Source: a virus | Taxonomy: Duplodnaviria; Heunggongvirae; Uroviricota; Caudoviricetes | Length of the DNA stretch: 34,080 nt | Direction: 5' to 3' (one strand) | Virus record (IMG/VR): IMGVR_UViG_648276671_000020 | Span: 1-34,080 of that record | Shown: piece by piece, positions 32,945-33,177 of the stretch | Position numbering within the stretch: the stretch's first letter is position 1 | How the letters are laid out: each line of letters opens with the position of its first letter | Made by a program: the position numbers and the translations under genes | Notes under the pieces: generated by a model | Told to the model about the DNA's origin: nothing | The model's database searches: none | The model's input: the letters and a program-made list of their open reading frames with translations, nothing else

Positions 32945-32953
32945 TCACAAAAA

Positions 32954-32981
32954 TAGCCCCTCAGTTGAGGGGCTATTTTTG
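32954..32981 (+). terminator. Intrinsic terminator after ogr
   Basis: Hairpin TAGCCCCTC-AGTT-GAGGGGCTA followed by TTTTT. Confidence 0.6.
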
Positions 32982-33070
32982 GTCGATGTGGACGCTATGT
33001 GGACAGCGGTTGACATAAATCCATTTATATCATCAGGTTAGGTGCTTTTTTGTGACACCATCCCTGTCTT

Positions 33071-33096
33071 CCCCCACATGATGTGGGGGTTTTTTT
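33071..33096 (+). terminator. Hairpin plus T-run at the prophage/host junction (host terminator and/or att core)
   Basis: CCCCCACAT-GATGTGGGGG followed by TTTTTTT, between ogr and fieF. Confidence 0.4.
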
Positions 33097-33177
33097 ATCC
33101 TCAATTTGCCTGGTGCTTAATGCATTGCAGATGATTTGCTTCCGTTATACTACCGTCAGTTGATAGCGGGAGTATTT

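Follow-up and report, generated by a model that had tools for sequence, protein, structure and literature searches.

The window, a stretch of DNA of 34,080 nucleotides, ends in a junction between a prophage and its host. Positions 32983-33099 are very probably the attR site (P-O-B') of a P2-like (Peduovirus) prophage of the WPhi type, inserted at the attB between cpxP and fieF. When the start of the small RNA CpxQ is counted from its published length, the core of this site is CpxQ nucleotides 15-58 plus ATC, the CpxQ terminator included. The attachment site of WPhi between cpxP and fieF is already known. A prophage 'Wphi1 (P2)' is listed at 'cpxP-fieF' in E. coli W (PMC3032704), Nilsson et al. 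(2011) placed WPhi and L-413C at MG1655 4104392 with a common core (PMC3448106), and other papers describe prophages of about 31 kb between cpxP and fieF in O157:H7 and in Salmonella Infantis. The CpxQ identity of the core is a small addition at the level of annotation and no new kind of system; a link between CpxQ and prophage integration was not found in the literature searched, the coverage of which was incomplete.

The phage genes at the two ends of the window are int and ogr. The int gene (1..981, minus strand) encodes a tyrosine integrase of the P2 family with WPhi specificity; its ORF spans 1..1011 (minus strand), and the CDS equivalent to that of WPhi is 1-981. Window positions 1-3 (tta) are the reverse complement of the int stop codon, and the last codon of the window is the fieF stop. 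The late-gene activator ogr (32726..32944, plus strand), which is labelled ogrK in related genomes, is the final phage gene ahead of attR, and its product is identical to WPhi Ogr at 72/72 amino acids. Directly downstream is a first hairpin (32948..32981, plus strand; fold of -25.5 kcal/mol, z = -7.3), the phage terminator of ogr and the late F operon. Its central part, window 32953-32978, aligns to the P2 terminator in NC_001895, where the equivalent hairpin is labelled 'rho-independent terminator for ogr transcript and F operon'.

The P arm, a putative arm-type binding region for Int (32983..33010, plus strand), aligns column for column with the P2 protein_bind feature 'Int P arm'. It contains two direct repeats of TGTGGAC, at 32987-32993 and 32998-33004, 11 bp apart. 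The arm consensus of P2-type integrases is tgTGGaCa (PMC3448106). TGTGGAC occurs three times in the window against four expected, and two of the three copies are in the P arm. By itself this count is not significant; the arm sites are identified by their tandem arrangement and by homology to the annotated P2 site. Between the P arm and the core is an IHF-like site (33014..33045, plus strand) in a block that is conserved between P2 and WPhi and that aligns with the P2 protein_bind feature 'IHF'. Within it, as read from the sequence, TATCATCAGGTTA at 33028-33040 agrees with the IHF consensus WATCAANNNNTTR at 12 of 13 positions. The binding of Int, IHF and Cox at these places is predicted from homology to the P2 annotation.

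The core (O) occupies 33054..33099 (plus strand) and was defined by a four-way comparison of an empty E. coli site (L001), the attL and attR of PCN033 (L002) and the attP of WPhi (L004). The sequence shared by all four is GACACCATCCCTGTCTTCCCCCACATGATGTGGGGGTTTTTTTTATC, 47 bp long and identical in attB, attL, attR and attP, with unrelated flanks; read side by side, the flanks recombine as BOB', BOP', POB' and POP' predict. A length of 47 nt for the WPhi core is supported by the present four-way comparison. The copy in the window has seven T in place of eight and is otherwise the same block, so that it measures 46 bp (T7) here and 47 bp elsewhere (T8). The gene order at the empty site is cpxA-cpxR-cpxP-fieF-pfkA, and in the occupied PCN033 it is cpxP, int, about 34 kb of P2-like genes, ogrK and fieF. 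A query from ogr to fieF against 5,426 complete E. coli genomes places the onset of host homology in prophage-free genomes at window position 33054, and a shorter query gives the same position. For annotation, the phage therefore ends at 33053 and the core is 33054-33099, with fieF and its leader native and undisturbed.

The second hairpin (33071..33096, plus strand) lies wholly within the core and is the rho-independent terminator of cpxP and CpxQ, with the stem-loop at 33071-33089 and the T-run at 33090-33096. It is the sole terminator-like site that the terminator scan reported within 32600-33400, and the fold agrees. The same sequence closes the cpxP 3' UTR at empty sites. The host flank B' (33100..33177, plus strand) is the native upstream region of fieF and is collinear with the empty cpxP-fieF spacer in the empty E. 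coli site and in all 5,426 complete E. coli genomes. The gene that follows (33178..34080, plus strand) encodes a metal efflux transporter of the CDF family and is 98-100% identical to annotated fieF; in 5,426/5,426 complete E. coli genomes it matches the annotated fieF at 98-99% identity. In related genomes pfkA follows fieF, so the gene in the window is the chromosomal fieF and no paralogue.

The left junction lies just beyond the window. The PCN033 attL core ends 116 bp past the int stop, whose equivalent here is window position 1; judging from related genomes, the attL of the window prophage should be found 116-163 bp to the left of the window start. The other side of the prophage is occupied by cpxP in PCN033, Escherichia sp. 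MOD1-EC7003 and at least eight further species, and by comparison with these relatives cpxP probably also lies to the left of the window's own prophage copy. The closest complete E. coli genome covers 84% of the window at 95.6% identity, and the closest species representative, MOD1-EC7003, is 98.1% identical.

These results support the interpretation given in a preliminary description of the window, which was made from the sequence alone. The int stop as the first codon, and ogr followed by two hairpins and then fieF, were all found where it had placed them. It had expected attR within 32985..33135, and the junction at 33054 falls inside that range, while the P arm, the IHF-like site and the core together span 32983-33099. 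Its suggestion that the second hairpin might be a host terminator contained in the core holds for the cpxP terminator, and its prediction of a left junction just outside the window agrees with the 116 bp measured in PCN033. The comparison that it proposed, with an unoccupied region upstream of fieF, is the one that defined the core and set the start of host homology. It had named two findings that would speak against it, the lack of a repeated core at the prophage ends and a fieF paralogue; the repeat is present at both prophage ends in occupied genomes, and the gene is the chromosomal one. Its statement that this is not the site of P2 itself was also correct (see below). Two points go beyond it, namely that the site is the published WPhi attB (PMC3032704, PMC3448106) and that the 3' part of the CpxQ gene forms the core.

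The phage is closely related to WPhi. The window Int is identical to WPhi Int at 322/326 amino acids, and both Pfam domains, Int_N and Phage_integrase, match. Translated WPhi genes are collinear on the window at 92-100% identity, structural and replication genes included, except for the repressor C (56%), Cox (81%) and the tail-fibre genes. WPhi (Peduovirus Wphi) and the phages that share its site (L-413C, fiAA91-ss, R18C and Wphi1 of E. coli W) are alike in an Int at 99%, the P arm, the IHF block, the core (one T fewer in the window) and the chromosomal site. In the phage database, 41 records contain 80% or more of the ogr-distal arm plus core, WPhi, L-413C, R18C and fiAA91-ss among them. The junction in the window has a cognate Int at the opposite end, the common core (T7 versus T8), the arm repeats and the cpxP-fieF locus; P' arm repeats, which fall outside the window, are present in relatives. 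The window phage differs from WPhi in being heteroimmune, in having mosaic tail-fibre genes H and G, and in carrying other cargo in two accessory hotspots. The diverged repressor C and Cox genes (1051-1344, minus strand, and 1466-1753) contrast with the 99% Int. This is a heteroimmune phage with a WPhi integration module and a mosaic junction between int and C.

CpxQ is a 58-nt, Hfq-dependent RNA that RNase E cuts from the cpxP 3' UTR; it takes up almost the whole of that UTR, has a rho-independent terminator at its end and a 5' seed with the experimentally mutated C11 (PMC6755755; PMC9438474; PMC4817254). By the sequence of the empty site, the attachment core is the end of the cpxP 3' UTR. 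The 5' end of CpxQ was set by counting upstream from the final T of the terminator over the published length of 58 nt, which gives a start of UUUUCCUUGCC... or UUUUCCUUGCCAUAGACACC... with a C at position 11. Independent support comes from 103 species-level sites, a subset of the 119 cpxP-linked sites found by an exact-pattern scan of species-representative genomes: across them the sequence is nearly invariant from CCCTGTTTTCC through the last base of the T-run, after which conservation is lost abruptly. In the RNA fold, AGACA pairs with UGUCU around CCATCCC, which is the loop of the first CpxQ hairpin.

The copy of CpxQ at attR is partial. Window 33054-33096 equals CpxQ nucleotides 15-58 with one U fewer, which includes the first CpxQ hairpin and the module of terminator and Hfq binding. 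It differs from CpxQ in lacking nucleotides 1-14, which hold the 5' seed with C11 and the RNase E processing context, and in lacking the cpxP promoter; the phage sequence GGTGCTTTTTTGT stands in front of nucleotide 15. A scan upstream of this copy found no promoter-like site. The attR copy is no complete CpxQ gene, and the presumably functional copy would be at attL, outside the window. The attL of PCN033 equals the empty site base for base from cpxP through the T-run, so the cpxP-CpxQ unit is intact at the int-proximal junction.

Attachment sites that overlap the 3' part of an RNA gene are known from phages that integrate at tRNA and tmRNA genes (186 at tRNA-Ile, HP1 at tRNA-Leu, Fels-2 and SopEPhi at ssrA), where the shared sequence starts close to the crossover and extends to the 3' end of a structured non-coding RNA gene, which is rebuilt at the int-proximal junction. 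The present site is alike in that attB overlaps the 3' part of an RNA gene and identity extends to the 3' end, with the CpxQ 5' end counted from 58 nt. It differs in its target, which is an Hfq small RNA derived from a 3' UTR instead of a tRNA-like gene. For P2-like phages that integrate at tRNA genes, the 2011 survey gives gene rebuilding as the reason for the long cores; it put P2-type sites such as the present one 'between other genes' (PMC3448106). That the core is the 3' part of CpxQ explains the unusual length of the 47-bp WPhi core, and also why the site is conserved and is an insertion hotspot from Escherichia to Erwinia.

P2, in which the attP layout is annotated experimentally, has the same layout at another locus. 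In its reference record (NC_001895) the order is ogr, rho-independent terminator, Int P arm, IHF, attP core, Cox, Int P' arm and int, and the layout of ogr terminator, two TGTGGAC-type repeats, IHF, core, Cox sites, P' arm and int is common to both phages. An alignment of P2, WPhi and the window shows the terminator, the P arm and the IHF block conserved and divergence exactly at the core. The 27-bp P2 core, AAAAAATAAGCCCGTGTAAGGGAGATT, is absent here: the alignment parts at the core and the window Int is only 52% identical to P2 Int, so the window site is not of the P2 type. The two integrases agree well in the arm-binding N-terminus; their divergence lies in the middle of the protein, with the core-binding domain.

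The classical P2 site is also a small-RNA terminator. The P2 remnant in K-12 MG1655 (L129 1490-1700) consists of D', ogrK, the terminator, the P arm and the IHF block followed by AAAAAATAAGCCCGTGTAAGGGAGATT, and in K-12 this sequence forms the 3'-terminal 27 nt of CyaR (Rfam CyaR_RyeE, 100.7 bits, opposite strand), another Hfq-dependent small RNA, with half of its terminator included. This was seen by scanning the K-12 remnant locus; a scan of the P2 attP against Rfam gave nothing relevant, 27 nt being too short. The P2 core is shorter than the CpxQ-type cores (27 bp versus 42-47 bp), and the small RNA is towards the ogr end in P2 and towards the int end in WPhi-type prophages. WPhi, with CpxQ, joins P2, with CyaR, as a phage that targets small-RNA terminators.

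Occupancy of the site is common. The P arm, core and fieF-side junction occur together in 786/5,426 complete E. coli genomes (14.5%), a lower bound that leaves out lineages with other arm sequences, and the attB sequence occurs in all 5,426. The exact-pattern scan found the 119 cpxP-linked sites in Enterobacteriaceae, Erwiniaceae and one Serratia. Eighty of these are empty, ten are attL junctions with an integrase 66-100% identical to the window Int, seven are attR junctions, and five are phage-phage junctions (tandem prophages or attP). Nine others have extra DNA before fieF, some of it clearly element remnants, and eight are unclassified, with a right-hand side that is too short or otherwise ambiguous. 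About 14% of complete E. coli genomes carry a prophage junction here, which matters for the engineering or deletion of cpxQ and for work that treats the cpxP-fieF spacer as neutral or as a marker of strains.

The extent of the identity block varies with the host. In Pseudocitrobacter, Yokenella, Citrobacter and Kosakonia, attL and attR share CACCATCCC...GGGGGTTTTTTTT, which is CpxQ nucleotides 17-58 up to the end of the T-run; after the T-run the empty sites of these four genera have GCC or GTC, and their attL have the ATCAAT of the phage. Empty Escherichia sites (L001 1547-1549) have ATC after the T-run, as in the phage attP; in most other genera the T-run is followed by GCC or GTC. This accounts for an identity block of 47 bp in Escherichia against one of 42 bp in other genera. 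In at least seven phage arm lineages, one of them with TGTAGAC arms and an Int 67% identical to that of the window, the stretch shared with the host opens 0-4 nt ahead of CCATCCC; its right end is the T-run, or in Escherichia a point 3 nt beyond it.

Several other elements use the site. A circular 'plasmid' of 32,330 bp in E. coli (L006, NZ_JBQJRQ010000002.1) is a complete circular P2-like phage genome, with an Int 67% identical to the window Int, TGTAGAC arm repeats, a CpxQ core from CACC and a cargo gene of 215 amino acids between ogr and attP. E. coli EC-14-2-9 (L007 1833-3988) has IS150 and a hypothetical gene of 213 amino acids between ogr and the P arm of attR. A minor cargo hotspot beside the P2 att site has reportedly been described recently, and the arrangement in EC-14-2-9 agrees with it. 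At junctions in Salmonella enterica s1 (L009/L024) and Kosakonia oryziphila (L108/L008) the P arm of one phage is on the left and the P' arm of another is on the right. These show tandem P2-like prophages, with two Int/arm lineages at one CpxQ site.

Integration would proceed by binding of Int to the arm and core sites, with IHF bending the P arm, followed by strand exchange between attP and attB. Excision would additionally need Cox, bound to the P' arm at attL, a short distance to the left of the window. The phage carries a replacement for the 3' two-thirds of CpxQ, and integration would leave attL with the complete cpxP-CpxQ unit and attR with a promoterless, 5'-truncated copy. The attR terminator, together with that of ogr, would shield fieF from late transcription of the phage. 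The exchange may take place at the left edge of the core, in CCATCCC between inverted GACA and TGTC.

The 46-bp match might instead be host sequence that stands beside the prophage end by chance, for example a duplicated terminator, and be no recombination core at all. Such a reading would fit the single core copy that is visible inside the window (chance expectation 0), but its probability is close to nil, since free phages (WPhi, L-413C and others) have the block between ogr and int, occupied genomes have the core at both ends and empty genomes once, and the pattern recurs in at least six genera. A chance or REP-like repeat is ruled out by the four-way comparison, by the presence of the core in phage attP and by the zero chance matches. 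Given a true attR, the element could still be a decayed, non-inducible remnant, with a fossil junction that no longer takes part in excision. One-base deletions split the frames of genes Q and V relative to WPhi, and remnants are common at this site in other species. However, all of the approximately 40 WPhi genes are present and collinear at 92-100% identity, with no damage to int, cox, the P arm or the core. All three indels (in Q, gpV and the core T-run) fall in or close to homopolymers, where assembly errors typically arise, and the PCN033 copy is likewise annotated 'frameshifted', in other genes. A decayed state is therefore unlikely. The crossover point within the attR core is more finely balanced. 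The seven bases CCATCCC (33058..33064, plus strand), between inverted GACA (33054-57) and TGTC (33065-68), are the most likely overlap region, at about an even chance. Polymorphisms between attL and attR place the exchange to the right of CpxQ nucleotides 16-18 and to the left of the T-run; the scan demanded an exact match to nucleotides 19-39 and does not discriminate inside that stretch.

Exchange could alternatively occur inside the terminator hairpin, with CCCCCA and TGGGGG as core-binding sites around a 7-bp overlap CATGATG (33077-33083); in that case, the identity further to the left would serve Int binding alone. The strongest dyad of the core is that of the terminator, a perfect CCCCCA CATGATG TGGGGG, and the P2 core begins within the CyaR terminator. 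The left half-site symmetry (GACA) of the CCATCCC candidate is missing in some arm lineages. In P. vendiensis the T-run differs between attL and attR, which places the exchange to the left of the T-run and no more. Against the hairpin, about 13-17 bp of perfect identity to its left (GACACCATCCCTGTCTT) would have no reason, and at least seven independent arm lineages keep GACACCATCCCTGTCTT and lose identity within 0-4 nt of CCATCCC. The simpler account is a gene-restoring block with the crossover at its start, and exchange in the hairpin, while possible, seems somewhat improbable next to exchange in CCATCCC.

A broader idea is that the intergenic att sites of P2-type phages are all the 3' ends of Hfq-dependent small RNAs (CyaR and CpxQ, the latter for several Int/arm lineages in Enterobacterales), and that the phage-borne CpxQ module of 42-47 nt is transcribed by read-through during infection or lysogeny and acts as an Hfq-binding mimic or competitor of CpxQ. 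This is a long shot. If it were true, the phage CpxQ module, with its first hairpin and Hfq-binding terminator downstream of ogr in attP and attR, would be more than a repair patch, and the mimic would tune the envelope-stress response in favour of the phage.

The Rfam signal at the CpxQ region is on the opposite strand. No CpxQ family of Rfam reached its gathering score on E. coli, and the only signal was RF02628 'Hrs1' (33031-33096, minus strand). The same family exceeds its gathering threshold where CpxQ lies in Mixta, Kalamiella and Erwinia, at the cpxP 3' ends of Erwiniaceae (L019 5282-5355, L017, L027, L110, L116 and L120), always on the strand opposite to cpxP. The Hrs1 model starts with an A-run and a hairpin, which is a backwards terminator. 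Hrs1 looks like CpxQ placed in Rfam on the wrong strand.

Two phage genes in the window have frames that differ from those of WPhi. In the portal gene Q (8489-9523, minus strand) a poly-A run at codons 4-6 (within 9440-9530) has five A where WPhi has six; the frame is shifted, and the longest ORF (8489..9478) restarts at the equivalent of Met16. The gene for the baseplate spike gpV (17731-18365) has a one-base deletion near 17941 (ctggcgtggg versus ctggccgtggg in WPhi) that splits it into overlapping frames, 17731-18057 and 17850-18365. These indels and the T7 of the core may represent prophage decay or homopolymer and systematic indel errors of the assembly.

The first accessory hotspot (5775-8488) is between the replication gene A and the portal gene Q. 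It encodes an M78 peptidase or ImmA-IrrE-like protein (6910-7395; Pfam PF06114, 6e-21; capP/RmrA-like in PADLOC) and after it a protein of 209 amino acids without a family match (7463-8092). The pair could be a two-gene defence or regulatory module, unlike the methylase cargo of WPhi. The second hotspot (22898-26341) is between the tail-fibre assembly gene G and the sheath gene FI. Its ORFs of 511 amino acids (23255-24790, plus strand) and 250 amino acids (25166-25918, minus strand) have no match in Pfam or PADLOC, and at this position WPhi carries the unrelated orf44.
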